Notes: a model not told the origin generated them from the letters alone. 64,000 nt of DNA from an uncultured Acidobacteriota bacterium (GCA_963700145.1 OY969474.1:992001-1056000), one strand, 5' to 3'; counted from the first letter of the stretch, positions 1 to 40,712 are shown. Made by a program: numbers and translations.

Positions 1-3000
1 GCGAGGGCTGCGGCGTCGTGGTGCTAATGCGGCTCGACGCGGCGCGCGCCGCCGGGCGCCGGGTGCGCGCGGTGATCCGCGGCTGGGGCGTGTCCTCGGA
101 CGGCCGCGGCGGGCTGACGCGGCCGGAGGTGGAAGGGCAGATGCGGGCGCTCGCCCGCGCCTACGCGTGCGCCGGGCTGGCGATCGGCGAGGTCGCCTAC
201 TTCGAAGGGCACGGCACCGGCACCGCGGTGGGCGACGCAGCCGAGCTCGAGGCGCTGTCGCGGGCGCGCCGGCAGGACCGCGGCGACGAATGCGATGACC
301 GGGGAGGGCGGGCGCTCCCCGCCATCGGCTCGATCAAGGCGGTCATAGGACACACCAAGGCCGCGGCCGGGGTCGCCGGTCTGATCAAGGCGACGCTGGC
401 GCTCGAGGCGCAAGTGCTGCCGCCGACGATCGGCTGCGACGACCCGCACCCGCTCCTCGCCGGACCGGACGCCGCTCTGCGCGCGCCGGCGGCGGCGGAG
501 CCGTGGCCGGCGGCGGCACCGCTCCTCGCCGGCGTGAGCGCCATGGGGTTCGGCGGCATCAACGCGCACCTCGTGCTCGAGGGCGTGGCGGGCGAGCGGC
601 GGCGGCGGCTCGCCCCGGCCGAGCAGCTCCTCGCGGCATCGCCGCAGGACGCCGAGCTACTGCTGCTCGCGGCCGACGACGCGGCGGCGTTGGCACAGGA
701 GGTCGCGCGACTGGCGCGGCTCGCGCCCCGTCTTTCTCGGGCCGAGCTGGGGGACCTCACCGCGCGCCTCGCGGCCGACCTGCGGCCGGGGCGGCTGCGG
801 GCGGCGGTCGTGGCCGGCTCGCCCGCGGGTCTCGCGCGGCGCCTCGAGAAGCTCGCCGACTGGCTCGCCCTCCTGCCGCCGTCTGACGCCGATGACGTGG
901 GCTGCTGGCGGCAGCTCGACGCCGCGGACGGTGTCTTCCTGGGGCTCGGCGGACAGGCGCCACGGCTCGGCTTCCTCTTCCCCGGCCAAGGAGCGCCCGT
1001 TCCCGCCGCCGGCGGCGCACTGGCGCGGCGCTTCGCCGCCGCGGCCGAGGTCTACGCCGGGCTTGACCTGCCGTCCGTAGAGGACCGCATCGCCACCGCC
1101 GTCGCCCAGCCGGCCATCGCCGCCGCCACGCTCGCCGCGCTGAGGGTGCTCGAGCTGCTGCGGATCGAGGCCGCGGTCGCGGTCGGGCACAGCCTGGGGG
1201 AGCTTGCGGCGCTAACCTGGGCGGGAGCACTCGACGCCGCCGCGCTGGTGCGGGTGGCGGCGGCGCGCGGCCGGGCGATGGCGGAGGTCGACGCCCCGCC
1301 GGGAGCGATGGCCAGCCTGGCGGCGGCGCCGGAGGCGGTCGCGAGCTTCCTCGCCGGCGGCGAACTGGTGGTGGCCGCGTACAACACGCCGGCCGACACC
1401 GTGGTCTCCGGTCCGGCGGCCGCCGTCGAGCGCCTGATCGAGCGCGCCCGTGCCGCCGGTCTGCCGGCCTCGCGCCTCGCCGTCTCGCACGCCTTCCACG
1501 CGCCGGCCATGGCGGCGGCGGCACCGCGCCTGGCGGCGGCGCTGGCGGCGGAGGCTCTGCGGCCGCCGGTCCGCCGGGTCGTCTCGACGGTCACCGGCCG
1601 GCCGCTGCCGCCAGAGGTGGACCTCGTCCGCCTGCTCCTCGACCAGCTCACGCATCCGGTGCGCTTCGTCGCGGCGCTGGCCGCCGCCGGACCGGTGGAC
1701 CTCTGGATCGAGGTCGGCCCCGGCCGGGTGACGAGCGGCCTCGCCGCCTCCTGCGGCGCGGCGCCGGCGGTGCCGCTCGACGCCGGCGGGCCGTCGCTCC
1801 GCGGGCCGCTGCAGGCCGCGGGCGCCGCCTTCGCTCTCGGCGCGCCGGTTGCGGCGGCGGCGCTGTTCGCCGGGCGCTTCACACGGCCGTTCGATCCCGA
1901 GCGCCCGCTGCGCTTCCTCGCCAACCCCTGCGAGCGGGCGCCGGTAGCGCCTAACGATCTCGGCGCCGAGCCGAGCGTGAGGCAAAGAGAAGAAAGGAGT
2001 CCGATGGGGGCAGAACAAGCGCACGCTGCCGCCGACCCGCTGGCGGTCGTGCGCGGGCTCGTCGCCGAGCGCGCCGAGCTGCCGCTCGCGGCCGTGGACG
2101 AGACGAGCCGCCTGCTCGGCGATCTCCACCTGAGCTCGATCGCCGTCGGCCAGCTCGTCGTCGAGGCGGCGCGGCGGCTCGGGCGCGCGGCGCCGGCCGC
2201 GATCATCGAGTACGCCGGCGCCACCGTCGGCGAGGTGGCGCGTGCGCTCGCCGAGCAGCCGCAGCGCGACGAGGCGGCGGCCGAGCCCGAGCGCTGGCCG
2301 GCCGGAGTGGACGCCTGGCTGCGCGCCTTCATCCTCGCTTGGGTGGAGAGGCCGGCGGCGCCGCCGCGCCCGCTCCCCGTCGGCGGCGCCTGCGGCTGGC
2401 GCGTGATGGCGCCGGCCGGGCACCCGCTGGCCGAGCCGCTGCGCCGTGAGCTGGCGCGGGCCACGGGCGGGGGCGTCGCCGTGTGCCTGCCGGCGGAGCC
2501 CGGCGCCGCCACTCCCGGTCTCCTCCTCGCCGCCGCGCACGCGGTCATGGCGCTACCGCGGCCGGCCTGCTTCGTGGCGGTGCAGGCCGCGGGATGGGGA
2601 GGTGGGTTCGCGCGCACTCTCCATTTGGAACGGCCGGATCTCGCCACCGCCGTCGTCGAGGTTCCCTTGGTGGCGCCGGACGGCCATCCGGCCAGCATCG
2701 CGGCTTGGGTGGCGCGCGAGGCCGCGGCGGCGCTCGCCGCCGGCGGCTATCACGAGGCGCGCTACGACGACGCCGGGCGGCGCAGCGAGCCGGTCCTCCG
2801 CCTGCTCGCCGAGCCGCCGCTCGACGTCGAGCCCGCCGCCCCCGCCGCGCTCCCTCTCGGTCCAGACGACGTCCTCCTGGTCACCGGCGGCGGCAAGGGG
2901 ATCGGCGCCGAGTGCGCGCTGGCGCTGGCTCGCGCGAGCGGCGCGCGGCTGGCCCTCCTCGGCCGCTCGCGGCCCGAAGAGGACGGCGCGCTGGCCGCGA

Positions 3001-5057
3001 ACCTCGAGCGCCTGCGCGCCGCCGGGGTGGCCTTCGCCTACCTGAACGCCGACGTCACCGATCCCGACGCGGTCGCGGCGGCGGTGCGCGCAGCGGAGCG
3101 CCGGCTCGGGCCGGTCACCGCCGTGCTCCACGCCGCGGGAAGCAACTCCCCGTGCCTCGTGGCGGCGCTCGACGAGGCGGCGTTCCGCCGCACCCTGGGG
3201 CCCAAGGTCGACGGCCTCGCGCACGTGCTCTGGGCGCTCGATCCGGCGCGCCTCCGCCTGCTGGTCGCCTTCGGCTCGATCATCGGCCGCACCGGTCTGC
3301 CCGGCGAGGCCGACTACGGCGTCGCCAACGAGTGGCTGGCGCGCCGCGTCGAGGCGTTCGCGGCGGCGTTCCCGGCCTGCCGCTGCCTCACCGTCGAGTG
3401 GTCGGTCTGGTCGGGGGTCGGCATGGGCGAGCGACTCGGCCGTGTGGAGGCGCTGCTGCGCGAGGGGATCACGCCGATCCCGCCCGACGGCGGAGTCGCG
3501 GCGCTCCTCGCGCTGCTGCGCCGGCCGCCGCCGGCGACCTCGGTCGTGGTCTGCGGCCGCTTCGGCGACCCGCCGACGCTGCGCCTTGAGCGCCGCGAGC
3601 TGCCGCTGCTCCGCTTTCTCGAGGTGCCGCGCGTCCACGTGCCGGGTGTGGAGCTGGTGGTGGAGAGCGATCTCTCGGCCGATTCCGACCCCTACTTCGC
3701 CGACCACCAGCTCGCGGGCGAGCGCCTGCTGCCGGCGGTGATCGGGCTCGAGGCGATGGCGCAGGCCGCGATGGCGGTCGCCGGTGCGACGGCGCTGCCG
3801 GTCTTCGAGGAGGTCGCGTTCCTGCGCCCGGTCGGGCTCCCGGCCGCCGGCCGGACGCGGCTGCGCATCGCGGCGCTCGGACGCGAGCCGGGGCGGGTGG
3901 AGGTGGTCCTCCGCTGCGCCGCGACCGGCTTCGCGGCCGACCACTTCCGCGCCACCTGCAGCTTCACGGCGGGGCGCCCCGAGGCGGCGACGCCGGCGGG
4001 CGCGGCGCCCGCCGACGAGCCGCCGGCGCGCCTCGCGCTCGACCCCCAGCGCGAGCTCTACGGCGACCTGCTGTTCCACGGCGCCCGCTTCCAGCGTCTG
4101 AGCGGTTACCGGCGGCTGCGCGCCACCGAGTGCCTCGCCGAGATCTCGCCTGACGGTCATACCGAGTGGTTCGGGAGCTACCTGCCCGCGACTCTGGTGT
4201 TGGGCGACCCCGGCGCCCGCGACGCCGCGCTGCACGGCGTGCAGGCCTGCGTGCCACACGCGACTCTCCTGCCGATCGGCGTCGAGCGGATCGAGACCGC
4301 GCCGCTCGCCACCGATCAGCCGTGCCGCGTCACTGCCCGCGAGCGGCGGCGCGACGGGAACACCTTCGTCTTCGACCTCGAGATCGCCGACGCCGGCGGC
4401 GCCCGCGAGCGCTGGCTGGGGCTCCGCCTGCGCGCCGTCGCCGCGCTGTCGCCGCGCGCCGCCTGGCCGCTGCCGCTCCTCGCTCCCTACGTCGAGCGCC
4501 GGCTCGAGGAGCTGCTGCCGGCGGGCCGGCTGGCGGTCGTCCTGGAGCGCGCCGCCCGGGGCGAGCGCCGCGCCGCCGCCGGCCGGGCGCTGGCCGCCGC
4601 GCTCGGGACCGCCGCCGTCGTTGCCCGCCGTCCCGACGGCCGGCCGGAGGGGCCCGGCGGCCGCGCCGTCTCGGTGGCGCACACGGTGGGCCTGGTGCTG
4701 GCGGTGACCGGCGCCGGTCCGCTCGGCTGCGACCTCGAGCCGGTCGCGGACCGCCCGCCGGAAGCCTGGCGCAGCCTCCTCGGGAGCGAGCGGTCGGCGC
4801 TCGCGGCGCTGCTCGGCCGCGAGCGCGGCGAGGACGCGGCGGCCGCGGCGACGCGCGTCTGGACCGCGGCCGAGTGCCTGAAGAAGGCCGGCGCCCCGGC
4901 CGCAGCGCCGCTGGTGCTGGCCGGCGGCACGGCCGACGGCTGGGTGCTGCTGCGCTCGGGACGGCTGCAGGTGGCGACGCTGGTGACCGGCATCGGCGCG
5001 GAGAGCGGGCGTCTGGCGCTGGCGGTGGCGGCGGAGGCGGTCGATGCCCTTCTTTGA
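1..5057 (+). CDS. pksE: Enediyne iterative type I polyketide synthase (PKSE), 5'-truncated by the window edge
   Basis: Frame is open from the window start (EGCGVVVL). KS motifs EGHGTGTAVGD and GSIKAVIGHTKAAAG; AT GHSLGE and HAFH; central ACP LGDLHLSSIAVGQL; KR TGGGKGIG and YGVANEW; DH DPYFADH..LLPAV; C-terminal PPTase GCDLE..WTAAECLKK. This domain order is diagnostic of PKSE. Confidence 0.96.
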   Translation, partial: EGCGVVVLMRLDAARAAGRRVRAVIRGWGVSSDGRGGLTRPEVEGQMRALARAYACAGLAIGEVAYFEGHGTGTAVGDAAELEALSRARRQDRGDECDDRGGRALPAIGSIKAVIGHTKAAAGVAGLIKATLALEAQVLPPTIGCDDPHPLLAGPDAALRAPAAAEPWPAAAPLLAGVSAMGFGGINAHLVLEGVAGERRRRLAPAEQLLAASPQDAELLLLAADDAAALAQEVARLARLAPRLSRAELGDLTARLAADLRPGRLRAAVVAGSPAGLARRLEKLADWLALLPPSDADDVGCWRQLDAADGVFLGLGGQAPRLGFLFPGQGAPVPAAGGALARRFAAAAEVYAGLDLPSVEDRIATAVAQPAIAAATLAALRVLELLRIEAAVAVGHSLGELAALTWAGALDAAALVRVAAARGRAMAEVDAPPGAMASLAAAPEAVASFLAGGELVVAAYNTPADTVVSGPAAAVERLIERARAAGLPASRLAVSHAFHAPAMAAAAPRLAAALAAEALRPPVRRVVSTVTGRPLPPEVDLVRLLLDQLTHPVRFVAALAAAGPVDLWIEVGPGRVTSGLAASCGAAPAVPLDAGGPSLRGPLQAAGAAFALGAPVAAAALFAGRFTRPFDPERPLRFLANPCERAPVAPNDLGAEPSVRQREERSPMGAEQAHAAADPLAVVRGLVAERAELPLAAVDETSRLLGDLHLSSIAVGQLVVEAARRLGRAAPAAIIEYAGATVGEVARALAEQPQRDEAAAEPERWPAGVDAWLRAFILAWVERPAAPPRPLPVGGACGWRVMAPAGHPLAEPLRRELARATGGGVAVCLPAEPGAATPGLLLAAAHAVMALPRPACFVAVQAAGWGGGFARTLHLERPDLATAVVEVPLVAPDGHPASIAAWVAREAAAALAAGGYHEARYDDAGRRSEPVLRLLAEPPLDVEPAAPAALPLGPDDVLLVTGGGKGIGAECALALARASGARLALLGRSRPEEDGALAANLERLRAAGVAFAYLNADVTDPDAVAAAVRAAERRLGPVTAVLHAAGSNSPCLVAALDEAAFRRTLGPKVDGLAHVLWALDPARLRLLVAFGSIIGRTGLPGEADYGVANEWLARRVEAFAAAFPACRCLTVEWSVWSGVGMGERLGRVEALLREGITPIPPDGGVAALLALLRRPPPATSVVVCGRFGDPPTLRLERRELPLLRFLEVPRVHVPGVELVVESDLSADSDPYFADHQLAGERLLPAVIGLEAMAQAAMAVAGATALPVFEEVAFLRPVGLPAAGRTRLRIAALGREPGRVEVVLRCAATGFAADHFRATCSFTAGRPEAATPAGAAPADEPPARLALDPQRELYGDLLFHGARFQRLSGYRRLRATECLAEISPDGHTEWFGSYLPATLVLGDPGARDAALHGVQACVPHATLLPIGVERIETAPLATDQPCRVTARERRRDGNTFVFDLEIADAGGARERWLGLRLRAVAALSPRAAWPLPLLAPYVERRLEELLPAGRLAVVLERAARGERRAAAGRALAAALGTAAVVARRPDGRPEGPGGRAVSVAHTVGLVLAVTGAGPLGCDLEPVADRPPEAWRSLLGSERSALAALLGRERGEDAAAAATRVWTAAECLKKAGAPAAAPLVLAGGTADGWVLLRSGRLQVATLVTGIGAESGRLALAVAAEAVDALL

Positions 5058-5469
5058 GCAGCGCCACGTGGTCGCCTTCGAGGACACGAACCTGGTGGGC
5101 AACGTCTATTACGTGAACTACCTGAGCTGGCAGGGACGGTGCCGCGAGATGTTCATCCGCGCCTACTGCCCGGAGCTGCTCGCCGAGCTGGCCGGCGGGC
5201 TGGCCCTGGTCACCACCCGCTGCTCGTGCGATTTCCTGCGCGAGCTCGCGGCGTTCGACGAGGTGGCGGTGCGCATGCGCCTGGGCGAGCTCGGGCAGAG
5301 CCGCGTGACCATGCTCTTCGACTATTGGCGGCTGGCCGCCGAGGGCGAGGAGCTGGTGGCGCGAGGCGAGCAGCAGGTGGCCTTCATGCGGCGCGAGGCG
5401 GACCGGCTGGTGCCGGCGCCGGTCGCGCCGCGCTTCCGGGAGGCCGTCCAGGCCTTCGTCACGCAGTGA
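5044..5469 (+). CDS. Enediyne hot-dog-fold thioesterase (SgcE10/CalE7/DynE7-like)
   Basis: HVVAFEDTNLVGNVYYVNYLSWQGRCRE signature; overlaps the pksE stop by 14 nt. Confidence 0.95.
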   Translation: MPFFEQRHVVAFEDTNLVGNVYYVNYLSWQGRCREMFIRAYCPELLAELAGGLALVTTRCSCDFLRELAAFDEVAVRMRLGELGQSRVTMLFDYWRLAAEGEELVARGEQQVAFMRREADRLVPAPVAPRFREAVQAFVTQ

Positions 5470-5498
5470 GCGCGGCGCGAGCCGCAGGAGGAGAGGCG

Positions 5499-6425
5499 AT
5501 GGCGATTCCACTCGCGGGCGGCGCACGGCCGGACACCATCCAGGCCCACCGCCGGGCTGTGGACCGGGTCATCCAGGCGATGCACGAGAACCTCGCCGAG
5601 GAGTTCTCGCTCGAGGACATGGCCGACGTGGCGCTCATCAGCCCCTATCACTTCAACCGCGTCTTCCACCAGGTGGCCGGCGTGCCTCCCTGCCAGTTCC
5701 TGAGCGCGCTGCGCCTCTGGCACGCCAAGCGCCTGCTGCTGACGACGCACCTCAAAGTGACCGACATCTGCTTCGAGGTGGGCTACAACAGCCTCGGCAC
5801 CTTCACCCGCCGCTTCACCGACCTCGTCGGGGTGCCGCCGCAGCGTCTGCGGGCGCTGGGCCGCTCGGGTGGGCTCGAGTCGCTCATGGAGCGGCTCCGC
5901 GCGAGCCTCGTCGCGCACGCCGCGGAGGCGGCGGACGCCATCGGCGGCGAGACCGCCGGCGGGCCGGCCCCGGGCAGGACCCCCGCGGCGCGCGCCGGCG
6001 CCCGCGGCGGCCCGGCGGGCCTGCACGGCGTGGCGCACGCGCCGGCGGGCTTCCACGGGCCAGTCTTCGTCGGCCTCTTCGCCAGCTCGCTGCCGCAGGG
6101 ACGGCCGCTCGCCTGCACCGTCCTGGCGCAGCCCGGGAGCTTCCACATCGCGCGCCCGCCGGACGGCACGCTCCACCTCTTCGCCGCCGCGGTCGAGCCC
6201 CGGGCGCAGGACGCCGCCGAGCACCTGCTCTTCGAGCGGGCGCTGCGCGGCACCGCCGGCGGGCGGGTGGTCAGGGTGCGCAACGGCGCTGCGGCGGCGC
6301 CGGTCGATCTCGTGCTGCGCGCCCCCGAGGCGGTCGATCCGCCCATCCTGCTGACCTTCCCAGTGCTGCTCGCCGAGCGGCTGGTGGGAGCCCCAGCCGC
6401 AGCGCCCGGCGCGGCGGTGAACTGA
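5499..6425 (+). CDS. AraC-family transcriptional regulator (N-terminal HTH pair plus C-terminal domain)
   Basis: SLEDMADVALISPYHFNRVF and VTDICFEVGYNSLGTFTRRF; GGAGGAG SD before ATG 5499. Confidence 0.92.
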   Translation: MAIPLAGGARPDTIQAHRRAVDRVIQAMHENLAEEFSLEDMADVALISPYHFNRVFHQVAGVPPCQFLSALRLWHAKRLLLTTHLKVTDICFEVGYNSLGTFTRRFTDLVGVPPQRLRALGRSGGLESLMERLRASLVAHAAEAADAIGGETAGGPAPGRTPAARAGARGGPAGLHGVAHAPAGFHGPVFVGLFASSLPQGRPLACTVLAQPGSFHIARPPDGTLHLFAAAVEPRAQDAAEHLLFERALRGTAGGRVVRVRNGAAAAPVDLVLRAPEAVDPPILLTFPVLLAERLVGAPAAAPGAAVN

Positions 6426-6466
6426 GCGCGCCCCTGGCGCGCAGGACGAGCGTGGAGGAACGAACC

Positions 6467-8026
6467 ATGAGCCACCGATCCCACCACATCGCGCAACTCT
6501 CCCTGTTGCTCGCCGTCGCCGTCGCCTTCGGCTACCTGCTCGGCACACAAGGAACGCTCGTCTGGGGCCTCGACGGGCCGCGGAACGAGCAGCCGGCACC
6601 GCGCACGACCTCCGACGGCATGGTCGCCCCTTCGCCTCCCGCCGCGGCCGCCGACTGGCGCCGCCCGTACCCGCAGCTCCAGCCGCTCGGCGAGGTGCTC
6701 GCGCCGTTCCCGGCGGCGGCGCCCGGCACGCTCGTGCCGCAGGATCTGTACCGCTACGGCGGCCGCGGCAAGCGCGAGTTCGCCTCGGTCGACGACGTGC
6801 CGGAGTTCGCCGCCTTCCACCGCGCGATGGCGGCGCAGAAGCCGCAGGTGATGGCCGCGCGCCGCGACTATCTCGAGCGCCGCTACGAGCTGTCCGGCCA
6901 CACCGCGGCGGACGCCGCGATGACGCGCGGCAAGCCGCTGCCCGTGGGACCGGTGGTGCGGCTCCCCGCAGCGGTCGCCTCGTGGGAGGAGCTGGCGGCG
7001 CTGCCACCCGCGGAGATCCTCCGCCGCGATCTCCTTCCCGAGGGGTTTCGCCCGCTCTCGCACCCCCTCCACTCGACCGGTCACGCCCTCTTTCCCGGTC
7101 CCTGGGTGACGGCCCACCCCGAGCACCGGCGCTTCGACGTCGACTTCGACCTGCCCGAGGCCTATCTGCCGGAGTTCCCGCCGCCGCTGTTCTTGACCAC
7201 CCGCCCCGATCTGGGCGACGTCTCGCAGGGCAAGGAGGTCAACCAAGCCAACTTCCGCGAGCTTTTCGAAGGCGTCTTGACGCCTGAGCAGCTCGAAGGG
7301 CTGCGCCTGCTGGTGACGCCGGCGGCCACCACCTGGTTCAACCACACGAAGCACCGCGTCACCGTCCAGCCGTCGCGCGGCGTCGCCTGCCTCGACTGCC
7401 ACGTCAACGGCCACACCAACGGCGCCATCGTCCTCGACCCCGGCTCGCGGCCGACCCTGGCGCGCACGCGCCTGGACACGCCGAGCCTCCGCGGCAACAA
7501 CGTCAACGCACTCTTCTCCGCGCGCCGCTCGATCCGCTCGCTCGACCATTTCGCTGAGGTCGAGGAGTACTTCGACGGCGACATCTCGATCCAGCCGCAG
7601 ATCGGCGGCCGCCAGCTCGACAAGCCCTCGACCAACCGCATGGGCGACTTCAACGCCATCGTCGGCTTCCCGCCGGCGCCCAAGCTCACTCGCCTGGGGC
7701 GCCTCGACCAGCGGCAAGCGAGCGCCGGCGAGCTGCGCGGTGAGCGCCTGTTCTTCGGCAAGGCGCAGTGCGGCACCTGCCATCCGGCTCCGTACTACCT
7801 CGACAACTCGATGCACGACCTGCGGGTCGAGGAGCTCTACCGCGGCCGGGCCGAGGGCTGGATCAAGACCTTCTCCTTGCGCGGCATCAAGGACAGCCCG
7901 CCCTACCTCCACGACGGCCGTCTGCCGACCCTCGAGGACACGGTCGAGTTCTTCAACCTGCTGCTCGGGACGCGGCTGACCCACGAGGAGAAGCGCGACG
8001 TGGTGGCATTCCTGCGCTGCCTGTAA
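6467..8026 (+). CDS. Exported di-heme cytochrome c, cytochrome c peroxidase-like
   Basis: N-terminal hydrophobic segment; CLDCH and CGTCH heme motifs; TPSLRG and PPYLHDGR. Confidence 0.85.
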   Translation: MSHRSHHIAQLSLLLAVAVAFGYLLGTQGTLVWGLDGPRNEQPAPRTTSDGMVAPSPPAAAADWRRPYPQLQPLGEVLAPFPAAAPGTLVPQDLYRYGGRGKREFASVDDVPEFAAFHRAMAAQKPQVMAARRDYLERRYELSGHTAADAAMTRGKPLPVGPVVRLPAAVASWEELAALPPAEILRRDLLPEGFRPLSHPLHSTGHALFPGPWVTAHPEHRRFDVDFDLPEAYLPEFPPPLFLTTRPDLGDVSQGKEVNQANFRELFEGVLTPEQLEGLRLLVTPAATTWFNHTKHRVTVQPSRGVACLDCHVNGHTNGAIVLDPGSRPTLARTRLDTPSLRGNNVNALFSARRSIRSLDHFAEVEEYFDGDISIQPQIGGRQLDKPSTNRMGDFNAIVGFPPAPKLTRLGRLDQRQASAGELRGERLFFGKAQCGTCHPAPYYLDNSMHDLRVEELYRGRAEGWIKTFSLRGIKDSPPYLHDGRLPTLEDTVEFFNLLLGTRLTHEEKRDVVAFLRCL

Positions 8027-8064
8027 GGAGCCTCGGCGGCCGCGGCGGTCGGGCCCTTCAGCCC

Positions 8065-8106: not shown

Positions 8107-8152
8107 GCGGGGAAAGGCCGGCGCAGGCGCGAGCCGTCGGAGGGCCACCGGA

Positions 8153-13951: not shown

Positions 13952-13981
13952 GGCCGGCGGCCTCTCGGGTCGCCGGCCTTC
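13952..13981. terminator. Hairpin between convergent genes (probable intrinsic terminator)
   Basis: GGCCGGCGGCC-loop-GGTCGCCGGCC stem followed by TTCT. Confidence 0.5.
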
Positions 13982-33105: not shown

Positions 33106-34190
33106 CTCTCGATCCGGCACCGGCGCGCCTCGCGGGCGGCCTGCTCCTCCTCAGTCTCCTCCTGGCAGCGCCGCTGGCGGCGCAGGAGCACCGGCATGAG
33201 GTCGCGCCGGCCGACGACGAGGCGCCCGGCCTCAGGGTGCGGCGCGTGCTGACGCCGCCGCCGGGGTTCAAGGGCACGGTGACCTACGACGCCGACTCCG
33301 GGCGGCTCTTCCTGGTCTCCCACGGCCCGCCGGCCAACACGCGCGGCCGCAGCAGGCTCTACGAGCTCGAGCCGGCGGGAGGGAAGGTCCTGCGGCAGGC
33401 GATCCTGCCGTTCGTGGGCGAGCTCCCGTCGCCGGTGCTGGTGGACGGCGTCCTGTACCAGGCGGTCCATCACGAGTCGAAGCTGTTCCGGATCGACGTC
33501 CGCCCGGGGCCGGACTTCGGGAAGGTGCTGGGCGAGCTCGCGCTGCCGACGCTCGTCGACCTCGACGTCTCCTCGCGGGACGACGTCTACCGCTTCCCCT
33601 TCGTGTCGTTCCGCGGCGTCAGCCGCACGCCCGAGGGGGAGCTGCTGCTGCACGCCCAGGAGCTGGGGGATCTCGTCACCGTCGACCGGACGACCGGCCG
33701 CTTCACCCGCCGCGTTCCGACGCTCAAGGGGCTGGCCGGCATCGCGGCGGTCCCCGGGCCGCGCGGCGAGCCCCTGGTCCTCGCCAACAGCGACCCCGCG
33801 CAGGCGGAGTTCGAGAGCGAGGTGCGGCGCTTCATGTTCCGCGCCGCGCACGACGGGCCGCCGGCGCCGCGCTACGGCGCCCGCGACGTGCTCTGGGTCC
33901 TCCTCGACGGCGGCAGCGGCGAGGTCCTCGCCTCGGCCGAGAGCCGCGACTCGCGCGCCGAAGCCGGCGCCATCGCGCTGCTGCGGCGCGAGGACGTGGC
34001 GGGGACGCCCTACGGCCGGTACGTCTTCCTCACCACCGGCCCCGAAGGGCTCCTCGAGATGGAGTGGACACCTGGCGGCGACGCCGACGTCGCCGCCATC
34101 AGGAGCTGGGCCGCTCCCCGGCGGCCGTCACCAGAAGCTCGAAAAACCTGGGTCTATGGGGACCCGAACAAAGGAGCGGAACCACGATGA
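33102..34190 (+). CDS. Secreted putative beta-propeller protein, paralog C3
   Basis: ATGA overlap; signal peptide; SGRLFLVSHGPPAN..LYELE..GTPYGR..MEWTPG. Confidence 0.78.
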   Translation: MTLDPAPARLAGGLLLLSLLLAAPLAAQEHRHEVAPADDEAPGLRVRRVLTPPPGFKGTVTYDADSGRLFLVSHGPPANTRGRSRLYELEPAGGKVLRQAILPFVGELPSPVLVDGVLYQAVHHESKLFRIDVRPGPDFGKVLGELALPTLVDLDVSSRDDVYRFPFVSFRGVSRTPEGELLLHAQELGDLVTVDRTTGRFTRRVPTLKGLAGIAAVPGPRGEPLVLANSDPAQAEFESEVRRFMFRAAHDGPPAPRYGARDVLWVLLDGGSGEVLASAESRDSRAEAGAIALLRREDVAGTPYGRYVFLTTGPEGLLEMEWTPGGDADVAAIRSWAAPRRPSPEARKTWVYGDPNKGAEPR

Positions 34191-35383
34191 GAAACCCAGT
34201 CGGAATCGCCACCAATGAGGTAGCCGTCCAGGAGTTCGCGACGGGGCACCGTTACGGCGACCCCACCACGCGTTTCAGCGAAGCCATCCAGCACGCGGCG
34301 CTGAGCTTGGAGGGGCGCACCGACGACGAGCTCAAGGCCGACGGGCTCAACCTCCCCGACCCAGTGCTGCGCGAGTACGCCCTCTACCAGCTCCTGGCGC
34401 GGCGCCGCGAGGCCGCGCTGCCGGTGATCGAGCAGGCGCTGCTCAACGACAGCGACACCGACCTGCGCGTCAACCTGCTGTGGGCGCTCGAGTGGCTGCA
34501 CAGCCCGCAGTGCCGCGAGATCGGCCTGGCGCTGATCAACGATCCCGACCACCGCGTCCAGGAGTGGGCGCGCGTGTTCGCCTGGGAGATGGGCTGGACC
34601 GACAAGGACTTCCGCCGCGCCCGCGAGTTCGCCTACTACCAGGGGAGGACCTTCGACCAGACGATCTTCCTCCACATCACCTGCAACCTCTACATCCGCC
34701 TCGGCCAGGGGACGGACATGTGGGGCCACGTGCTGCTCAGCCCGCAGATGCTGGCCCGCATCTACGGCCAGGCCAAGGCCTGCCCGATCGTCGAGACCCG
34801 CGACCGCGAGATCGTCATCTCGAAGACCCTCCAGGGCCTGCACGAGGACGGCAGCGAGCACTACGAGGCCTTCCTCTTCCGCGGCTTCACCGAGCAGTCG
34901 ACGTCGACGCAGGGCAACTTCTACTTCGAGACCCAGAGCGAGCGGCCGTTCTTCCTCTCCGGCAAGGCCAACGACGCATCCGAGGGCGTCGTCGAGCGGG
35001 TCACCGTCCCGTTCGCCCGCGAGGGGCAGTGGTTCCTCAACGAGAACATCGAGATCAAGGGCAAGAAGGCGATCGAGTACGTGCGCGGTCTGTTCCAGGG
35101 CTGGGCGTTCGTCAACCTCGAGCGGATCGAGCGCAACGGCGGCCAGTTCCTGTTCCCCGGCAACTCGGTGCTCTCGACGCTGCACCACCCGGTCGTCGGC
35201 GAGAAGACCAACACCTTCCTGAACGGCCGCTTCAAGGGCAAGGTCGTGGACTGGAACGGCGACGGTATCATCGACCTCAACTACCTGCCGGGCAACGCCA
35301 CGGCCAAGGGCGAGGTCGACTCCAACAACGACGGCATCCCCGACGTGCCGGGCATGACCGTCTCCTGGCAGCCGGCGGCCTGA
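34187..35383 (+). CDS. Cytoplasmic HEAT-repeat protein with an unknown C-domain and DxNxDG motifs
   Basis: AAGGAG SD; DPVLREYAL, DTDLRVNLLWAL, DPDHRVQEWA; DWNGDGIID and DSNNDGIPD. Confidence 0.8.
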   Translation: MRNPVGIATNEVAVQEFATGHRYGDPTTRFSEAIQHAALSLEGRTDDELKADGLNLPDPVLREYALYQLLARRREAALPVIEQALLNDSDTDLRVNLLWALEWLHSPQCREIGLALINDPDHRVQEWARVFAWEMGWTDKDFRRAREFAYYQGRTFDQTIFLHITCNLYIRLGQGTDMWGHVLLSPQMLARIYGQAKACPIVETRDREIVISKTLQGLHEDGSEHYEAFLFRGFTEQSTSTQGNFYFETQSERPFFLSGKANDASEGVVERVTVPFAREGQWFLNENIEIKGKKAIEYVRGLFQGWAFVNLERIERNGGQFLFPGNSVLSTLHHPVVGEKTNTFLNGRFKGKVVDWNGDGIIDLNYLPGNATAKGEVDSNNDGIPDVPGMTVSWQPAA

Positions 35384-35453
35384 GACGAGCCGGCCCGCAG
35401 GGTTTGCGCGGCGGGGTCGCGGGCCGTCCCGGCCCCGCCGGCGAGGAGCTGGC

Positions 35454-36206
35454 ATGTACGACGTGTTCCGGCAGCGCCAGGTGCCGGTGCCCCGCGAGGA
35501 GGTGTGGCGCGCCATCACCGATCCGGCGCGCCTCGGCCAGTGGTTCGCGGACGTCGATCGCCCCTTGGTGCCCGGCGAGAGCTTCCGTTTCAGCTTCGGC
35601 GACGGCGACTTCTTCGCCGGCACCCTGATCGATGCCGCCGTGCCCCGGCTCCTGCACCTGAACTGGAAGTTCATGGACCTCGGCCTCCTCTTCGAGGTGC
35701 GCTACATCCTGACTCCGCTCGACGGCGACTCAACCGAGGTGACGGTGCACGATCAGGGCTCGCTGTCGGTCGAGGAGGTGATGAGCCTGCGCCAGGGATG
35801 GGACGACTTCCTGATGCGCCTGGACCAGTACCTCCGCACCGGCAAGAACGTCCGCTACACCTGGAGCGAGTCGATCGGCATCGGCGCGCTGCTGCGCCAC
35901 ACCGGCGGCGCCCTGCCGGCCGAGCTCGACGACCCACAGTGGTGGCGCCGGCACTTCCCGAGCGCCCAGGTCAAGGTTGAGCGCCCGGCCGAGCGCCAGC
36001 TCCACCTCCAGTTCACCGAAGGCGACTGGGAGGGCGGCGGCACCGAGGCGCTGGTCGAGACCGCCTGCGTCGGCGGCGGCACTTACCTCGGGCTCACCCA
36101 TCGCGGCTGGCCCAACCTGCCGGCGCTGCGCCAGATCGTCGAGCGCCGGCGCTACGCCGGCCTCTGGCGCGGGGCGCTCAAGGCGCTCGAAGAGCGGTAT
36201 CACTGA
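35454..36206 (+). CDS. SRPBCC/START (AHSA1-like) di-domain protein
   Basis: VPREEVWRAITDPARLGQWF..TEVTVH..GWDDFLMRL, then a second degenerate unit ending LTHRGW..WRGALKAL. Confidence 0.8.
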   Translation: MYDVFRQRQVPVPREEVWRAITDPARLGQWFADVDRPLVPGESFRFSFGDGDFFAGTLIDAAVPRLLHLNWKFMDLGLLFEVRYILTPLDGDSTEVTVHDQGSLSVEEVMSLRQGWDDFLMRLDQYLRTGKNVRYTWSESIGIGALLRHTGGALPAELDDPQWWRRHFPSAQVKVERPAERQLHLQFTEGDWEGGGTEALVETACVGGGTYLGLTHRGWPNLPALRQIVERRRYAGLWRGALKALEERYH

Positions 36207-36223
36207 GCGCGGGGGCGGCCGGC

Positions 36224-37423
36224 GTGCGCGAACTCCTCGCCAATCGCGCGTTCAGGCGCCTCTGGGCGGCGGGCCTGCTGTCGGCGCTCGGCACGCAGGT
36301 CAGCCGCATCGGGCTCATCCTCTTCCTCTTCGAGCGTACCGACTCGGTGCCGGGGCTGGCGCTGCTCGTGGTGCTCGAGACGCTGCCGGGGGTGCTCGCC
36401 GCGCCCGCCGCCGGCGCCGTCATCGACCGCCTCGACCGGCGCGCGCTGATGATCGGCGCCGACCTCCTGCGCGCGCTCTTCCTACTCGCCGTCCTCGCGC
36501 ACCCGGCCGTCGAGACGATCTATCTGATGGCGGCGCTGGGCTCGGTCGCCACGGCGTTCTTCCAGCCGTCCGAGCGCGCGCTGCTGCCCGCCGTCGTCCC
36601 CGCGGCCGACCTGCCGCGCGCCAACGGCCTCGCCGAGAGCACGAGCAACCTGGTGCTGATCCTCGGCCCGCTCGCCGGCGCCGAGCTCTTCTTCAGCGTC
36701 GGCTTGGCGCCCACGCTGCTGCTCGACGCGGCCTCGTTCGTGCTGAGCGCGGTCTTGATCCTGGGCGTCGGCGCGGGCGCCGCGGCGCGGCCGGACGGGC
36801 GCGCGGAGCGGGCGTCGCCGCTCGCCGACCTGCGCGACGGCTGGCGCTACGTGCTGCACCACCGCCTGGTCCTGCACCTGGCGCTCCTTTTCTTCGTCAG
36901 CCTCCTCTGCGTCGGCCTCTGGCTGCCGCTCGCGCCGTTCTTCATCCGCGAGTTCCTGGGCGCCGGCGAGCGCCTGCTGGGAGTCCAGATCGCCGCCTTC
37001 GGCCTGGGTGGCGTGCTCGGCGGCCTCGCGGCGCCGCGGCTCGTCGCCCACCTCGGCCAGGGCGCGGCGCTCTCCCTCGGGTTCCTCGCCGAGGGGACCG
37101 TGATGACGCTCTACGCGCTGGTGCCGGACGCGCGCGCCTCGGTCGGCATCATCTTCGTCTGGGGCGTCGTGGTGTCGATCGTCGTCGTGCCCTTCTACTC
37201 GCTCCTCCAGAGCGTGGTCGACGAGGGCTTCCGCGGCCGCGTCTTCTCCTTCCTCAAGCAGAGCGAGAGCCTGGCCCTCCTCGGCGCGATGGGGCTCGCC
37301 GTCGCCCTCCAGCGGGTGCTCCCGAGCCACTGGATCTTCTGCGCCGCCGGCCTCGCCTACTGCGGCGTCGCCGCGCTCGCCGCGACCACCGCCGGCGGGC
37401 GCGTGCTGCGGGCCACGCGATGA
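36224..37423 (+). CDS. MFS transporter (DHA3/MefA-like), paralog 2
   Basis: FRRLWAAGL, GAVIDRLDRRALMIGADLLRA; colinear with 17706..19001. Confidence 0.9.
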   Translation: MRELLANRAFRRLWAAGLLSALGTQVSRIGLILFLFERTDSVPGLALLVVLETLPGVLAAPAAGAVIDRLDRRALMIGADLLRALFLLAVLAHPAVETIYLMAALGSVATAFFQPSERALLPAVVPAADLPRANGLAESTSNLVLILGPLAGAELFFSVGLAPTLLLDAASFVLSAVLILGVGAGAAARPDGRAERASPLADLRDGWRYVLHHRLVLHLALLFFVSLLCVGLWLPLAPFFIREFLGAGERLLGVQIAAFGLGGVLGGLAAPRLVAHLGQGAALSLGFLAEGTVMTLYALVPDARASVGIIFVWGVVVSIVVVPFYSLLQSVVDEGFRGRVFSFLKQSESLALLGAMGLAVALQRVLPSHWIFCAAGLAYCGVAALAATTAGGRVLRATR

Positions 37424-39288
37424 GACGCCGCGCCCTGGCGCTCCTCCTCGGACTCTGGGTCGTCGCCGTCGTCGCCGCCGGTTGCGCCGGCCGCGAGCCG
37501 GTCTACGCGCTCCGCCGGCTGGCGGCCGATCCCGCCGGCGGCGGCGACGCTTCGATCTCTCCCGACGGGCGGCGATTCGTCGTCAGCTCGCGACGTGCCG
37601 GCAACTGGGACCTCTGGCTCTACGACATCGCGGCCGGGCGCTGGACGCAGCTCACTCGTCACCCCGCCGACGACTTCGAGGGCAAGTGGTCGCCCGACGG
37701 CCGGCGCCTCGCCTTTACCTCGACCCGCGGCGGCGGCAAGGACGTCTGGGTGATGTCGCTCGCCGGCGGCGCGCCGCGGCAGCTCACTTCCTCGCCGGCG
37801 GAAGAGGAGTACCCGGCCTGGTCGCCGGACGGGCGGCGGGTCGTCTACTCGGGCGGCCCGTGGGGCGAGCGCGATTTCTGGACCGTCCCCGCCGCCGGCG
37901 GCGCGCCGCGCAAGCTGACGCGGCGCCCCGGCTGGGCCGGCGCCTGCACCTTCGGCGCGCGCAGCGACTCGCTCGTCTGCCATCGCTACGACCAGGGGTC
38001 GGGCGACGTCGAGCGCCTCTGGCTCGACGACGGCGAGTCGACGCCGCTCACAGCCGGCGCCGACTGGGACTACAAGCCGGCCGAGTCGCCGGACGGGCGC
38101 TGGATCGCCTTCTCGCGCAGCCGCGAGGGGCCGTCGGGGATCTGGCTCATGCCGGCGGCCGGGGGGCGGGCGCGGCCGCTCACCGCCTCGCTCGCCGAGG
38201 ATCGCTGGCCGACCTGGAGCGCGGCGGGGGACCGCCTCTTCTTCCACCGGCTGGTGGAGACCGGCACCGCAGTCAAGCTCCTCGACCGCGCGAGCGGACG
38301 CGTGAGGACGCTCGTCGACGCCGGGGAGCGGCCGCTCCAGGCGGCGCTCGACCCGGCCGGCCGGCGGCTCGTCTACTGCGCCGAGCGCGGCGGCCGGCGC
38401 GTGCTGCGGCTGAAGGACCTCGGAAGCGGCGCCGTGCGCACGCTCCCGACCGGCGCCGCCGCGGCTTGCTTTCCGCGCTTCTCGCCCGACGGCGCGGCGA
38501 TCGCCTTCGCCGCCCGCGGCCCGGTGCGGTGGGAGATCGCCGTCATGCGCTCCGGCGGCGGCGGCCTGCGGGCGCTCACCGCCGGCCACGCCGGTCTGCG
38601 CGGCCTCGACGGCCCGCTCGACTGGTCGCCCGACGGCGCCCGGCTTCTCTTCCACTCCGACACGCGCGCCTTCGAGGCCAGCCTCTACACCGTCGAGGTG
38701 GCGACGCGGCGCCTGGCGCGGCTGACCTCCGACGCCTGGTTCGACGAGGCGCCGTCGTGGACGCCGGACGGGCGCGGCGTCCTCTTCATGTCGACGCGCG
38801 GCGGCGACTGGACGTGGGGCCTGTTCCGGTTGGCGGTCGATCGCGACGAGCAACGAGACGAGCCGGGTGGAGTGCTGGATGGGAAGGACGCGGCGATCCA
38901 GGTCTTCGCGGGTCCCGACTACGAGGAGAAGAACTACCCGCGGGCGGCGGCCGACGGCGCGATCCTCTGGAGCGCGGTGGACGGCGCGGGGGTCGAGCGG
39001 ATCGTCGAGCGGGCGGCCGGCGGCGAGGCGCGTGTGTGGCCGGGGACGGAGGGCGGGCGGTGGCCCTCGCTCTCGGCCGACGGGCGGCAGGTGGTGTTCA
39101 CGACGATCGCCAAGCGGGTCGAGTACTGGCTGGCGGAGAACCCGACCGGCAAGGGCTCGCCGCTCGCGGCGCCGCCGCGGCCTGCCCGCGGCCGGCGTGG
39201 AGCTCAGGTGGCGGCGATGACGCATCGCCCGGAGGTGGAGATCCGCACGGGCGCCCGCCGCAGCCCCGTCGATCTCCACCACCGCTGA
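37420..39288 (+). CDS. TolB-like (PD40 repeat) double beta-propeller lipoprotein
   Basis: Lipobox-like VAAGC; many P-x-WSPDG repeats. Confidence 0.85.
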   Translation: MRRRALALLLGLWVVAVVAAGCAGREPVYALRRLAADPAGGGDASISPDGRRFVVSSRRAGNWDLWLYDIAAGRWTQLTRHPADDFEGKWSPDGRRLAFTSTRGGGKDVWVMSLAGGAPRQLTSSPAEEEYPAWSPDGRRVVYSGGPWGERDFWTVPAAGGAPRKLTRRPGWAGACTFGARSDSLVCHRYDQGSGDVERLWLDDGESTPLTAGADWDYKPAESPDGRWIAFSRSREGPSGIWLMPAAGGRARPLTASLAEDRWPTWSAAGDRLFFHRLVETGTAVKLLDRASGRVRTLVDAGERPLQAALDPAGRRLVYCAERGGRRVLRLKDLGSGAVRTLPTGAAAACFPRFSPDGAAIAFAARGPVRWEIAVMRSGGGGLRALTAGHAGLRGLDGPLDWSPDGARLLFHSDTRAFEASLYTVEVATRRLARLTSDAWFDEAPSWTPDGRGVLFMSTRGGDWTWGLFRLAVDRDEQRDEPGGVLDGKDAAIQVFAGPDYEEKNYPRAAADGAILWSAVDGAGVERIVERAAGGEARVWPGTEGGRWPSLSADGRQVVFTTIAKRVEYWLAENPTGKGSPLAAPPRPARGRRGAQVAAMTHRPEVEIRTGARRSPVDLHHR

Positions 39289-39350
39289 CTGCTCTAGCCG
39301 CCCTCCGGTCGGAGGGTTGAGCCGGGTCGGAGGAGCCGAGGAGCCAAGCA

Positions 39351-40220
39351 ATGAGCCGGACGACGAAGCTCGCAGCAGCGGCCGTGGCGATCCTCCTCCT
39401 GGCCGCCGCCGGTGCCCTGTGGGCGAGCCTCGCCGGCCAGGGCTGGCGCGCCGAGACCCGCATCGTCCCGACGTCGCTCAAGAACCTCTCGGCCGTGACC
39501 TGGGACGGCGAGGCGCTGTGGGTCACCGTCGACACCGCGGGGCGCGCCTACCACCTCGATCCCGCGACCGGCGCCGTCGACCGCACGCTCGCGCTGCCGG
39601 CCAAGGACACCGGGGGCAGCGCCTGGGACGGCCGCACGCTCTGGCAGCTCGCCTATCGCGAGCGGAAAATCTACCGCCTCGACCCCGTGTCCGGCGCGGT
39701 CCTGGCCACGATCCCCTCGCCGGGCCGCGGCATGTGCAGCGGCATGACGTGGGACGGCCGCCACCTCTGGCTCGCCAACTGGGAGGACGAGCGCATCTAC
39801 CAGATCGATCAGGAGCGCGGCGGGCGGGTGCTGCGCTCGATCCCGGGCGAGCTCGAGTTCACCGGTCTCGCCTGGGACGGCCGCTATCTCTGGACCGGCG
39901 TGCTGGTGGGGACCGAGTCGCACGACGAGGCGCCGCCCTTCACCGGCTTCGTGCAGCAGCTCGACGTCGACACCCGCCGCGCGCTGCGCGCCTTCCCGGT
40001 CAACGGCGTCACCCCGGGCGGCTGCGACTGGGTCCCGGGGCGGCGCCTGGCGCGGCGCTTCTGGTGGTACGACCACTATCACGCGCGCTTGGTCGAGATG
40101 CGCCTCCGCCACGAGCACGAGAGCGCCGGGCGGGCGGCGGCGGGGATGTTGCTTCTCTTCGGTTGCGCGAGCGGCGGGTGGGCGCTGCGGGGGTGGCGGA
40201 GGGAGCGTCAGGGCACCTAG
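39351..40220 (+). CDS. Exported glutaminyl cyclotransferase-like beta-propeller with a hydrophobic C-terminus
   Basis: Four (T/A)WDGxxLW repeats and DPxTG motifs. Confidence 0.72.
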   Translation: MSRTTKLAAAAVAILLLAAAGALWASLAGQGWRAETRIVPTSLKNLSAVTWDGEALWVTVDTAGRAYHLDPATGAVDRTLALPAKDTGGSAWDGRTLWQLAYRERKIYRLDPVSGAVLATIPSPGRGMCSGMTWDGRHLWLANWEDERIYQIDQERGGRVLRSIPGELEFTGLAWDGRYLWTGVLVGTESHDEAPPFTGFVQQLDVDTRRALRAFPVNGVTPGGCDWVPGRRLARRFWWYDHYHARLVEMRLRHEHESAGRAAAGMLLLFGCASGGWALRGWRRERQGT

Positions 40221-40277
40221 CTCGCCGAGCCCCGGACGCGGAGGCCGGGCTGCAGACCGTCCAAAAGGAGAGCCGTC

Positions 40278-40712
40278 ATGTCGAGCTATCAGACGGGCAT
40301 CACCATCGCCGCGCCGCCCGAGCGGGTGTTCAAGCTGCTGACCGAGCCGGAGCAGATCAAGCGCTGGGCCGACGGAGTGGAGTCGATCGAGTACACCGAA
40401 GGCAGCCCGCGCCAGGCCGGCGCCCGCTTCAAGCAGCGGATCAAGGAGGGGAGCAAGATCGTCGAGTACGACGGCGAGGTCGTCGCCTACGAGCCGCCAC
40501 GCCGCCACACGACGCGGCTGGCGAACCCGCAGTTCACGATGGTCATCGACCACCACTTGAGCGCCGAGGGCGGCGGCACGCGCGTCGAGCAGCAAGTCGA
40601 CATGACGGCGCACAGCGCCCTCGGGCGGCTCCTCGGATTTGTCTTCTGCTGGTTCACCAAGGGCATCTCGCGCAAGCAGCTCGCGAAGGTCAAGGAGCTC
40701 GCCGAGAGCTAG
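40278..40712 (+). CDS. SRPBCC family protein (polyketide cyclase/START-like)
   Basis: IAAPPERVFKLLTEPEQIKRW..GGGTRV..LAKVKELAE; AAGGAG SD. Confidence 0.85.
   Translation: MSSYQTGITIAAPPERVFKLLTEPEQIKRWADGVESIEYTEGSPRQAGARFKQRIKEGSKIVEYDGEVVAYEPPRRHTTRLANPQFTMVIDHHLSAEGGGTRVEQQVDMTAHSALGRLLGFVFCWFTKGISRKQLAKVKELAES

Follow-up and report, generated by a model that had tools for sequence, protein, structure and literature searches.

Predicted exported proteins form a conserved partner set of an enediyne-type polyketide synthase cassette in a diderm acidobacterium

Does an enediyne-type polyketide synthase gene in a diderm bacterium belong to one pathway with the long row of mostly exported proteins encoded behind it, and what could such proteins do for the pathway outside the cytoplasm? 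The locus that raises this question lies in a stretch of 64,000 nucleotides from an uncultured Acidobacteriota bacterium (GCA_963700145.1 OY969474.1:992001-1056000), hereafter the window, which is C1:992001-1056000 of the host genome G000, a single contig of 5.46 Mb. The gene for the enediyne polyketide synthase (PKSE) enters the window from its left end, and is followed by the thioesterase gene E10 and by 26 accessory genes (window 5,499-40,712; Table 1). Genes were called by third-position GC content because the window is ~75% GC, and export was assigned from N-termini by eye, without SignalP. Labels of the form G0xx denote the genomes or metagenome-assembled genomes (MAGs) compared, and L1xx or L2xx the sequence stretches or metagenome contigs compared. 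Judged from marker genes, the host is a soil diderm acidobacterium of the class Thermoanaerobaculia, because the nearest matches of its PNPase are all MAGs labelled Thermoanaerobaculia and because lpxB and an MsbA-like gene are present. Both lie on the same contig, as a preliminary description of this DNA had stated, at 51-54 kb of the window.

Directly upstream of the window, where the preliminary description had suggested looking for E3, E4 and E5, we found all three genes together with a gene for a SARP-type regulator. All known enediyne pathways share E3, E4 and E5 as their three conserved helpers. The SARP gene, E3, E4, E5, PKSE and E10 are contiguous on one strand, and E10 overlaps the PKSE stop codon by 14 nt. 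The PKSE matched the Pfam KS (175 bits), AT (98 bits), KR (104 bits) and PS-DH (65 bits) domains, its AT region matched the solved DynE8 AT domain (216 bits), and its C-terminal stretch reads ...LGCDLEPV... and ...WTAAECLKK..., motifs that are phosphopantetheinyl-transferase-like. Between AT and KR, neither a PP-binding match in Pfam nor a simple GxDS pattern revealed an acyl carrier protein (ACP) domain, which in PKSEs frequently goes unrecognised by Pfam. PDB matches of E10 were 4i4j ("ACP-polyene thioesterase" by its entry title; 8e-41), CalE7 (1e-40) and DynE7 (2e-37). E4 has a signal-like N-terminus (MSAGRPLRRHAPKLVALGLIGALYGFA). For E5 the family evidence was a sub-threshold RnfD-like match only (23 bits); its position between E4 and PKSE fits UnbU, and its orthologues in other cassettes are 57-65% identical. 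PKSE orthologues in relatives are 51-62% identical. By these family and position assignments the five-gene enediyne-type cassette E3/E4/E5/E/E10 is complete. This five-gene cassette defines enediyne clusters (PMC4480864), and the literature ties E3, E4 and E5 specifically to formation of the enediyne core (PMC4480864, PMC10760148). A conventional tailoring set further upstream was considered and rejected; beyond the cassette and the SARP gene we found only the housekeeping genes rimP, nusA, infB, rbfA and pnp.

Cassette and accessory genes are enclosed in a single insertion. The genes pnp and NIF3 are adjacent in all five relatives tested (three of the same genus, two of the same family), and one same-genus relative with an uninterrupted pnp-NIF3 pair has a PNPase that is 99% identical. 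The gap between the two genes is ~20 nt in G004 and 46,729 bp in G000, where it runs from the SARP gene through the small SRPBCC gene. Homology between G000 and G004 breaks off where pnp stops and is regained at window 40755, the NIF3 start, which places the left end of the island at ~G000:C1:986025, just past the pnp stop, and the right end at ~window 40754. The island comprises 32 genes in 46.7 kb, with a GC content of 74.7% vs. 71.5% for the genome. No direct repeat was seen at the two junction sequences compared, and no integrase family was matched among the island genes scanned. In our reading of these sequences, the island would be one horizontally acquired block. An amine oxidase gene and an AAA-BTAD regulator gene (43.5-46.6 kb) were rejected as cluster members, being beyond NIF3 and outside the insertion.

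The same association recurs elsewhere. G041 has an 83.9-kb contig (C137; ~60% GC in its 20.9-kb stretch L139) on which 27 of the 33 proteins searched with were matched over more than half their length, and no match was obtained for SARP, cytc524, the S9 hydrolase, u485, u406 or the small SRPBCC protein. The order on this contig is E5-E4-E3, AraC-E10-PKSE, u261, u263, two genes of the TPR487/u327 type and two of the u508 type, then the methyltransferase, u231, an extra iterative polyketide synthase (PKS) and the FG-GAP/UnbV/redoxin gene, and finally u339, DHOR, PQQ-like, nitrilase-CCPx2, u362, HEAT, START, MFS, PD40 and DUF6923; from u261 to DUF6923 the order of G000 is nearly kept, at 30-70% identity. 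L155 and L156, whose near-identical PKSEs indicate one population, read E4-E5-PKSE-E10-AraC-u261-u263-u508-TPR/u327...u508-FG-GAP/UnbV, and the fragmented MAGs G042, G043 and CAZCOV have short contigs with pieces of the set in the same order. The sampled stretches of accessory-linked contigs range from 60 to 76% GC. Orthologues of the AraC gene adjoin E10 or cytc524 in G041, L151 and L153-L156, E10 being the neighbour in all linked examples, and homologues of u508 occur in G041, L153-L156 and L162. The families themselves are rare: u339 was absent from all 40 relatives in a sample of 41 genomes (G000 included) drawn from the same genus, the family and the order, and was found at four loci in three MAGs among ~185,000 species genomes. 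The u261 family was found in three MAGs among the same species genomes, with one weak unrelated match in addition, in 17 proteins among 5.8 billion, and in 2/401 genomes of a class sample (G000, and weakly G037).

These neighbourhoods, on the G041 contig and on L155/L156, agree with the expectation that the accessory families should co-occur with pksE elsewhere. Because of the single insertion, the conserved order on G041 and L155/L156 and the rarity of the families, the cassette and the ~26 genes downstream of it very probably constitute one conserved, co-inherited unit. A chance juxtaposition of an ordinary PKSE cassette and unrelated envelope genes would account for the cassettes of the closest relatives, which are without these neighbours. 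We consider it extremely improbable in the face of an order conserved at 30-70% identity across contigs of such different GC content, of a whole block inserted exactly between pnp and NIF3, and of families this rare. The extra PKS of G041 (2,080 aa, KS-AT-DH-KR-ACP; L139:380-6622 on the minus strand, C137 36589-42831) is absent from G000; enediyne clusters use such iterative PKSs for aromatic side groups.

In a FastTree phylogeny of 70 PKSEs, the G000 enzyme sits among PKSEs that adjoin E3 in many phyla, and its grouping with L155/L156 has support 99, within a clade of 13 rows that holds five accessory-linked sequences, seven from relatives and one from a planctomycete. On this tree the "accessory" label has to change twice, and a single origin may apply. 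We read this as a lineage-specific PKSE clade of which some members carry the partner set, G000 having presumably received the whole block laterally. A PKSE cassette in a diderm, which the preliminary description had set against the characterised actinomycete clusters, is in itself no rarity: E3 is present in 21 of the 41 genomes of the relatives sample, PKSE next to E3 was recovered from loci labelled Acidobacteriota, Cyanobacteriota, Planctomycetota, Verrucomicrobiota, Chloroflexota and others, and such cassettes outside the actinomycetes have been published (PMC10308959). In 2014, 7 of 61 enediyne clusters lay outside the Actinomycetales (PMC4480864). The cassette described here is of the same kind as those in phyla for which, according to PMC10308959, no enediyne-class compound has been reported (see also PMC4480864), and the mining reports outside Actinobacteria classify KS domains or cassettes (PMC10308959, PMC4480864). 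Among titles and abstracts on enediynes in Acidobacteria or diderms, or on enediynes and MauG, none was found that describes a conserved set of exported partners; supplements may list further non-actinobacterial clusters. Non-actinomycete PKSE cassettes are already published, and the conserved exported partner set appears to be undescribed. A second DUF1702 (E3-like) gene of G000, outside the window (C1:5265223-5266215, 313 bits), has flanking genes that are 62-80% identical to those of a full cassette in G018 and to those at loci of G002, G006 and G019 where E3 stands alone. The second site of G000 retains E3 alone, while the inserted island carries the whole cassette, and the second site may be the ancestral cassette site of this family.

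Inspection of N-termini divided the 26 accessory proteins into 17 exported (three of them with a lipobox-like Cys), three polytopic membrane proteins (the two MFS exporters and u406) and six cytoplasmic ones (the AraC regulator, the methyltransferase, u231, the HEAT protein, the 247-aa START protein and the 144-aa SRPBCC protein). The exported proteins are cytc524, the S9 hydrolase, the FG-GAP/UnbV/redoxin, DHOR, PQQ_2-like, nitrilase-CCPx2, PD40 and DUF6923-like proteins, and u261, u263, TPR487, u327, u508, u485, u329, u339 and u362. In a script heuristic, which is crude and which missed several genes and mis-scored one, 14 of 28 called island genes were exported-like as compared to 819/3,302 (24.8%) genome-wide, and 43 of 3,275 28-gene windows across the genome reached 14 such genes. 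By these predictions, exported proteins are enriched in the island. The preliminary description had counted about 25 genes, roughly 16 of them with signal peptides or lipoboxes, and its main features were recovered: the haem-c enzymes, the propellers (matches to PD40, FG-GAP, PQQ_2-like and DUF6923), and the paralogues (u261/u263 and TPR487/u327; the two MFS exporters, which are 50% identical; and u329, u339 and u362, which share 41-46% identity). Profile searches in Pfam, NCBIfam and the PDB gave nothing that bears out its labels "ART-like" and "barrel-like". Its statement that this part holds no P450, epoxide hydrolase, deoxysugar or nonribosomal peptide synthetase (NRPS) genes was likewise borne out, as no P450, epoxide hydrolase, flavin reductase, NRPS or sugar-pathway family was matched in window 1-40,712 or among the island genes scanned. 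The contrast it drew with cytoplasmic tailoring in known clusters holds less well, since two members of the core cassette, E4 and E5, are predicted exported and membrane proteins as well. Extracytoplasmic chemistry may therefore be partly general to enediyne cassettes.

Three of the exported proteins contain CXXCH motifs, two in cytc524, two in the DHOR protein and four in nitrilase-CCPx2, for a total of eight predicted haem-c sites. The nitrilase-CCPx2 protein matches CCP_MauG in two stretches (332 bits) and CN_hydrolase (104 bits), and has a signal peptide. With two CXXCH per unit and predicted export, it has the makeup of a MauG/CCP (cytochrome c peroxidase) di-haem protein. Its N-terminal nitrilase-like domain (29515-30500) seems, tentatively, to be without the Glu-Lys-Cys triad and may serve in binding and not in catalysis: at the position expected for the nucleophile Cys, a two-sequence alignment reads GVLAGDD in G000 and GLTWGSD in G041. 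The cytc524 protein matched MauG (6e-9) and MbnH (1.5e-7) below cut-off, its orthologues being 73-78% identical, and orthologues of the DHOR protein are 63-70% identical.

MauG oxidises residues of methylamine dehydrogenase and MbnH acts on MbnP; the known members modify a partner protein. The exported genes could accordingly be a self-contained periplasmic redox module, in which MauG-like enzymes make protein-derived cofactors in partner proteins, and which is merely co-inherited with PKSE. The di-haem genes do adjoin exported partners (cytc524 by u261/u263, and the run u339-DHOR-PQQ-like-CCPx2-u362), the u261 family has invariant Trp, Tyr and Cys residues, and the L154 block is without a PKSE over the stretch covered. 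G037 has a distantly u261-like gene (28% identity) that adjoins a CCP/MauG-like di-haem gene (contig C39, ~27.7-29.9 kb; L245/L246), apart from PKSE, which hints at a recurring pair of di-haem enzyme and partner. We nevertheless hold such a module to be improbable. All contigs long enough to tell, save L153/L154, link the set to PKSE (G000, G041, L155/L156), cytoplasmic methyltransferase, DynU16-like and SRPBCC genes and the MFS genes are interleaved with the exported ones and co-conserved, and the whole block was inserted as one piece. A complex prediction for cytc524 and u261 scored 0.02, which speaks neither for nor against binding.

A direct connection to characterised enediyne clusters is provided by the 247-aa START protein, which matched PDB entry 6v04 at 6e-28 over residues 6-244, and CalU16 at 7e-6. 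Entry 6v04 is DynU16, a di-domain START protein of the dynemicin cluster whose family has the motif RxxFxDGDFF and whose homologues occur in anthraquinone-fused enediyne pathways (PMC8488855). At the site of this motif the island protein reads FRFSFGDGDFF. By length and motif it is a full-length DynU16 homologue, and because of its presence we link the accessory set to characterised enediyne clusters. With this DynU16-family protein, the accessory set, for which a "different architecture" had been proposed, has an element in common with known enediyne clusters. For the second SRPBCC protein, of 144 aa, only weak PDB matches were obtained.

The FG-GAP/UnbV_ASPIC/thioredoxin-fold protein is a second UnbV-like protein, with matches to FG-GAP_3 (122 bits), UnbV_ASPIC (67 bits) and Redoxin (45 bits) and a signal peptide at its revised start. 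Its reading frame is interrupted by a TGA codon at window 22807-22809 (minus strand). The site is identical in 4/4 orthologues (G000, G041, L137, L155), in the context DA-stop-PLYWRQVLAL, and is followed by a hairpin (20-nt, 8-bp) that is identical in all four despite wide GC differences, so that covariation is not countable. The host genome encodes tRNA-Sec, SelA (355 bits) and SelB (362 bits). Because of the conserved TGA, the invariant hairpin and this machinery, the protein is most likely a selenoprotein with selenocysteine (Sec) at the TGA.

The explanation that we find best overall, at about an even chance, is an acquired enediyne-type island whose product is handled or matured by the exported partners. 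By homology, PKSE and E10 would make a conjugated C15 polyene and set it free, and E3 (cytoplasmic), E5 (polytopic membrane protein) and E4 (exported propeller) would act as conserved helpers, with E5 and E4 placing part of the core processing at or beyond the membrane. An intermediate of the polyene or polyyne type could leave the cytoplasm via the E5/E4 pair or via the two EntS-like MFS pumps. In the periplasm, the MauG/CCP-type di-haem enzymes, the propellers, the S9 hydrolase and the UnbV-like selenoprotein may tailor or control it, while the Cys-rich u261/u263, TPR487/u327 and u508 families may bind or carry it; the DynU16-like START protein and the second SRPBCC protein would bind the hydrophobic intermediate or protect the cytoplasm. 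Periplasmic maturation of the PKSE product is a tentative proposal, drawn from predicted protein location and gene linkage, to which we give slightly less than an even chance. As the end product we expect not the bare heptaene but a reactive molecule of the polyyne or enediyne class. That this would be the first enediyne or reactive-polyyne pathway with its late steps in a diderm periplasm, MauG-type enzymes and a Sec-containing UnbV protein replacing P450 and flavin chemistry and Cys-rich carriers serving in the manner of apoproteins, is in our estimate unlikely.

The island could alternatively make a linear polyene or polyyne lipid or pigment for the cell envelope, comparable in role to the aryl-polyene pigments, with the exported proteins moving it, anchoring it or giving it redox protection. 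A cassette that is this common in the lineage (E3 in 21/41) is more in keeping with a physiological lipid than with a genotoxin, the set includes lipoproteins and a TolB-like protein, the P450, flavin reductase and epoxide hydrolase families that finish the core in actinomycetes were unmatched, and PMC10308959 reports no enediyne compound from these phyla. Set against this are the retention of E3, E4 and E5, which PMC4480864 and PMC10760148 describe as specific to enediyne core formation, and the presence of a DynU16-family protein. Further, no Lol/LolA-like or acyltransferase family was matched among the island genes scanned (nor were apoprotein genes), and eight haem-c sites and a selenoprotein exceed the needs of transport. 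We regard an envelope lipid as unlikely, yet as a serious alternative, and the co-inherited redox module likewise.

A number of observations weigh against handling of an enediyne-type product by the exported partners. We searched 14 E3 loci in 13 relatives, each over ~10 kb + 50 kb (23 kb in G021, 20 kb in G037), with 37 query proteins of the locus; the second E3 copy of G000 was added. Seven loci hold a full cassette (51-67% identity), two E3, PKSE and E10, one E3, E4 and E5 without PKSE, and four E3 only, and at none of the 14 (~60 kb each) was a syntenic accessory gene found. Relatives thus keep cassettes of the same clade without the accessory set, which implies that the cassette works without it, and the set could serve another purpose. 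E3 was present in the three accessory-bearing MAGs tested (3/3), which is weak evidence as half of the relatives sample has E3 as well; only physical linkage counts. The contigs L153 and L154, which are alike in every match, carry AraC-cytc524-u261-u263-TPR-u327...u508-MT with no PKSE in the 7.4 kb covered upstream. The u261-like/MauG-like pair of G037 sits on a different contig than the G037 PKSE. Besides the DynU16-like protein, no enediyne-specific finishing enzyme of the actinomycetes was found, the nitrilase-like domain may be inactive, and export was predicted by eye and with a crude heuristic.

Compared to the actinomycete clusters for C-1027 (sgc), calicheamicin (cal) and dynemicin (dyn), the locus has the same five cassette genes, here contiguous on one strand, along with START (DynU16 family) and SRPBCC proteins, regulators of the SARP and AraC types, a methyltransferase and efflux pumps. 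It differs in its diderm host, in the lack of matches to P450, epoxide hydrolase, sugar, NRPS and apoprotein genes, and in its 17 predicted exported proteins, among them MauG-type enzymes, propellers, a selenoprotein paralogue of UnbV and three Cys-rich families. A diderm precedent is the colibactin (pks) island of Enterobacteriaceae, whose genotoxin, exported in prodrug form, becomes active in the periplasm. The likeness is one of idea only, a diderm keeping a DNA-damaging polyketide inactive until after export: no ClbP-type (beta-lactamase/S12-type) peptidase, NRPS prodrug motif or MATE pump was matched in the island, and its candidate periplasmic enzymes are haem peroxidase-like and not ClbP-family peptidases. 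With MauG and MbnH the island shares two CCP_MauG units in one protein and exported partner genes alongside. Here, unlike in the known members, which oxidise a partner protein, a small-molecule substrate is possible, and the island partners match no MbnP or dehydrogenase family.

In actinomycetes, E3, E4 and E5 are difficult to investigate. The 47-kb island, with its sharp ends and conserved list of partners, could be moved to a diderm host to learn the cassette's product outside actinomycetes and the site of its chemistry, and close relatives in which a cassette occurs without the partners are a natural comparison set. Several families without a known fold or function, and a new predicted selenoprotein, are hereby tied to a testable pathway. 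If true, periplasmic maturation would be a second solution to self-protection from a DNA-cleaving metabolite, in which the producer's DNA never meets the warhead. According to PMC8488855, the enediyne cyclases have not been identified, and the candidate proteins seem to be bound to membranes.

Table 1. Coordinates of the cassette, accessory and marker genes. Positions are those of the window unless given as G000:C1; export and family assignments are predictions.
Feature	Position	Strand	Remarks
SARP/BTAD regulator	G000:C1:986250-987224		upstream of window; BTAD 90 bits
E3/UnbL (DUF1702, PF08012)	G000:C1:987344-988297		344 bits vs. cut-off 25
E4/UnbV	G000:C1:988294-990258		654 aa; FG-GAP_3 93 bits, UnbV_ASPIC 35 bits
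E5/UnbU-like polytopic membrane protein	G000:C1:990255-991187		310 aa; at least 4 hydrophobic windows
PKSE, whole gene	G000:C1:991184-997057		1,957 aa
PKSE, 3' part	1..5057	+	gene enters window from left end
E10 hot-dog thioesterase	5044..5469	+	4HBT_2; directly after PKSE
AraC-type regulator	5499..6425	+	HTH_18 76 bits; cytoplasmic; adjoins E10
cytc524, MauG/MbnH-like C-terminus	6452..8026	+	membrane-anchored or exported; CXXCH at residues 313, 440
u261	8153-8938	+	exported; Cys/Trp-rich unnamed family
u263	9005-9796	+	exported; paralogue of u261, 34% identical
TPR487	9876-11339	+	exported; ~300-aa Cys-containing domain and TPR tail
u327	11351-12334	+	exported; shares ~300-aa Cys-containing domain with TPR487, 47% identical
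u508 lipoprotein	12399..13925	+	N-terminus ...LLLLAATGC
Class I S-adenosylmethionine (SAM) methyltransferase	13981..14844	-	Methyltransf_25/23/12; cytoplasmic
S9 (prolyl-oligopeptidase family) serine hydrolase	14850..16814	-	N-terminal propeller; Peptidase_S9 159 bits; exported
u231	16960..17655	+	cytoplasmic; G041 orthologue 49% identical, adjoins methyltransferase
MFS exporter 1	17706..19001	+	start uncertain; MFS_1 98 bits, MFS_3 76; EntS-like
u485	19008-20465	-	exported; downstream of selenoprotein gene
u406	20462-21682	-	eight-helix membrane protein; downstream of selenoprotein gene
FG-GAP/UnbV_ASPIC/thioredoxin-fold protein	21679..24612	-	exported; ~977 aa, read through TGA
u329	24776-25765	+	exported
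u339	25851-26870	+	exported; lipobox LAAC
DHOR-family di-haem protein	26905..28518	+	DHOR 50 bits; exported; CXXCH at residues 106, 339
PQQ_2/BamB-like propeller fragment protein	28614..29435	+	PQQ_2 29 bits; exported; G041 orthologue 62%
Nitrilase-superfamily domain and two MauG/CCP di-haem units (nitrilase-CCPx2)	29515..33105	+	exported fusion protein; CXXCH at residues 322, 469, 907, 1053
u362	33102..34190	+	exported; third paralogue of u339 family
HEAT-repeat protein	34187..35383	+	cytoplasmic; HEAT_2 below cut-off; orthologues 68-83% identical
DynU16-family di-domain START/SRPBCC protein	35463..36206	+	cytoplasmic; 247 aa; AHSA1/START
MFS exporter 2	36224..37423	+	MFS_1 108 bits; EntS-like; G041 orthologue 46%
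TolB-like PD40 propeller lipoprotein	37420..39288	+	PD40 173 bits; N-terminus ...VVAAGC
DUF6923-like protein	39384..40220	+	DUF6923 28 bits; exported; G041 orthologue 53%
Single-domain SRPBCC protein	40278..40712	+	Polyketide_cyc2 70 bits; 144 aa; cytoplasmic; last island gene
MsbA-like ABC exporter	51078-52994		diderm marker beside lpxB
lpxB	52991-54196		287 bits

Among the exported families, u261 and u263 had no Pfam, NCBIfam or PDB match, and the weak protein-atlas matches of u261 (0.80-0.86, avidin/DUF5991-like) were not relied on. The domain shared by TPR487 and u327 has conserved motifs in the family alignment; a PDB profile search gave TPR matches alone, and these were all that such searches with three family alignments yielded; a homologue search with u327 gave two matches, the candidates being mostly low-complexity. 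On L153 (6895-9138) there is no stop codon between the TPR487-type and u327-type genes, which may be fused there. The u329 and u339 proteins are probably six-bladed propellers; a protein-atlas lead for u339 to NHL/SGL/lactonase-like clusters (0.91-0.94) was not relied on. The DUF6923-like protein is distantly related to u329 (34% over 155 aa). With its start revised, the S9 hydrolase has the signal peptide MAAKPPSALLLALAASLALAAAAP, and its overlap with u231 is gone. No family match was obtained for u485 or u406, whose L137 orthologues are 57% and 62% identical, respectively, with their order kept.

On the cytoplasmic side, the best PDB matches of the methyltransferase were 3bus and MitM (~6e-15), u231 had no Pfam or PDB match, and no PDB relative was found for the HEAT-repeat protein. 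A terpene synthase gene, a P450 gene and a gene for a WD40 protein are inserted within the accessory block of L154 (15043-18590). Outside the island, after NIF3, lies a PIN-domain gene (window 41512-42038, minus strand; called at 102 aa, possibly start-truncated) with a small open reading frame upstream of it, the two being possibly a toxin-antitoxin pair.

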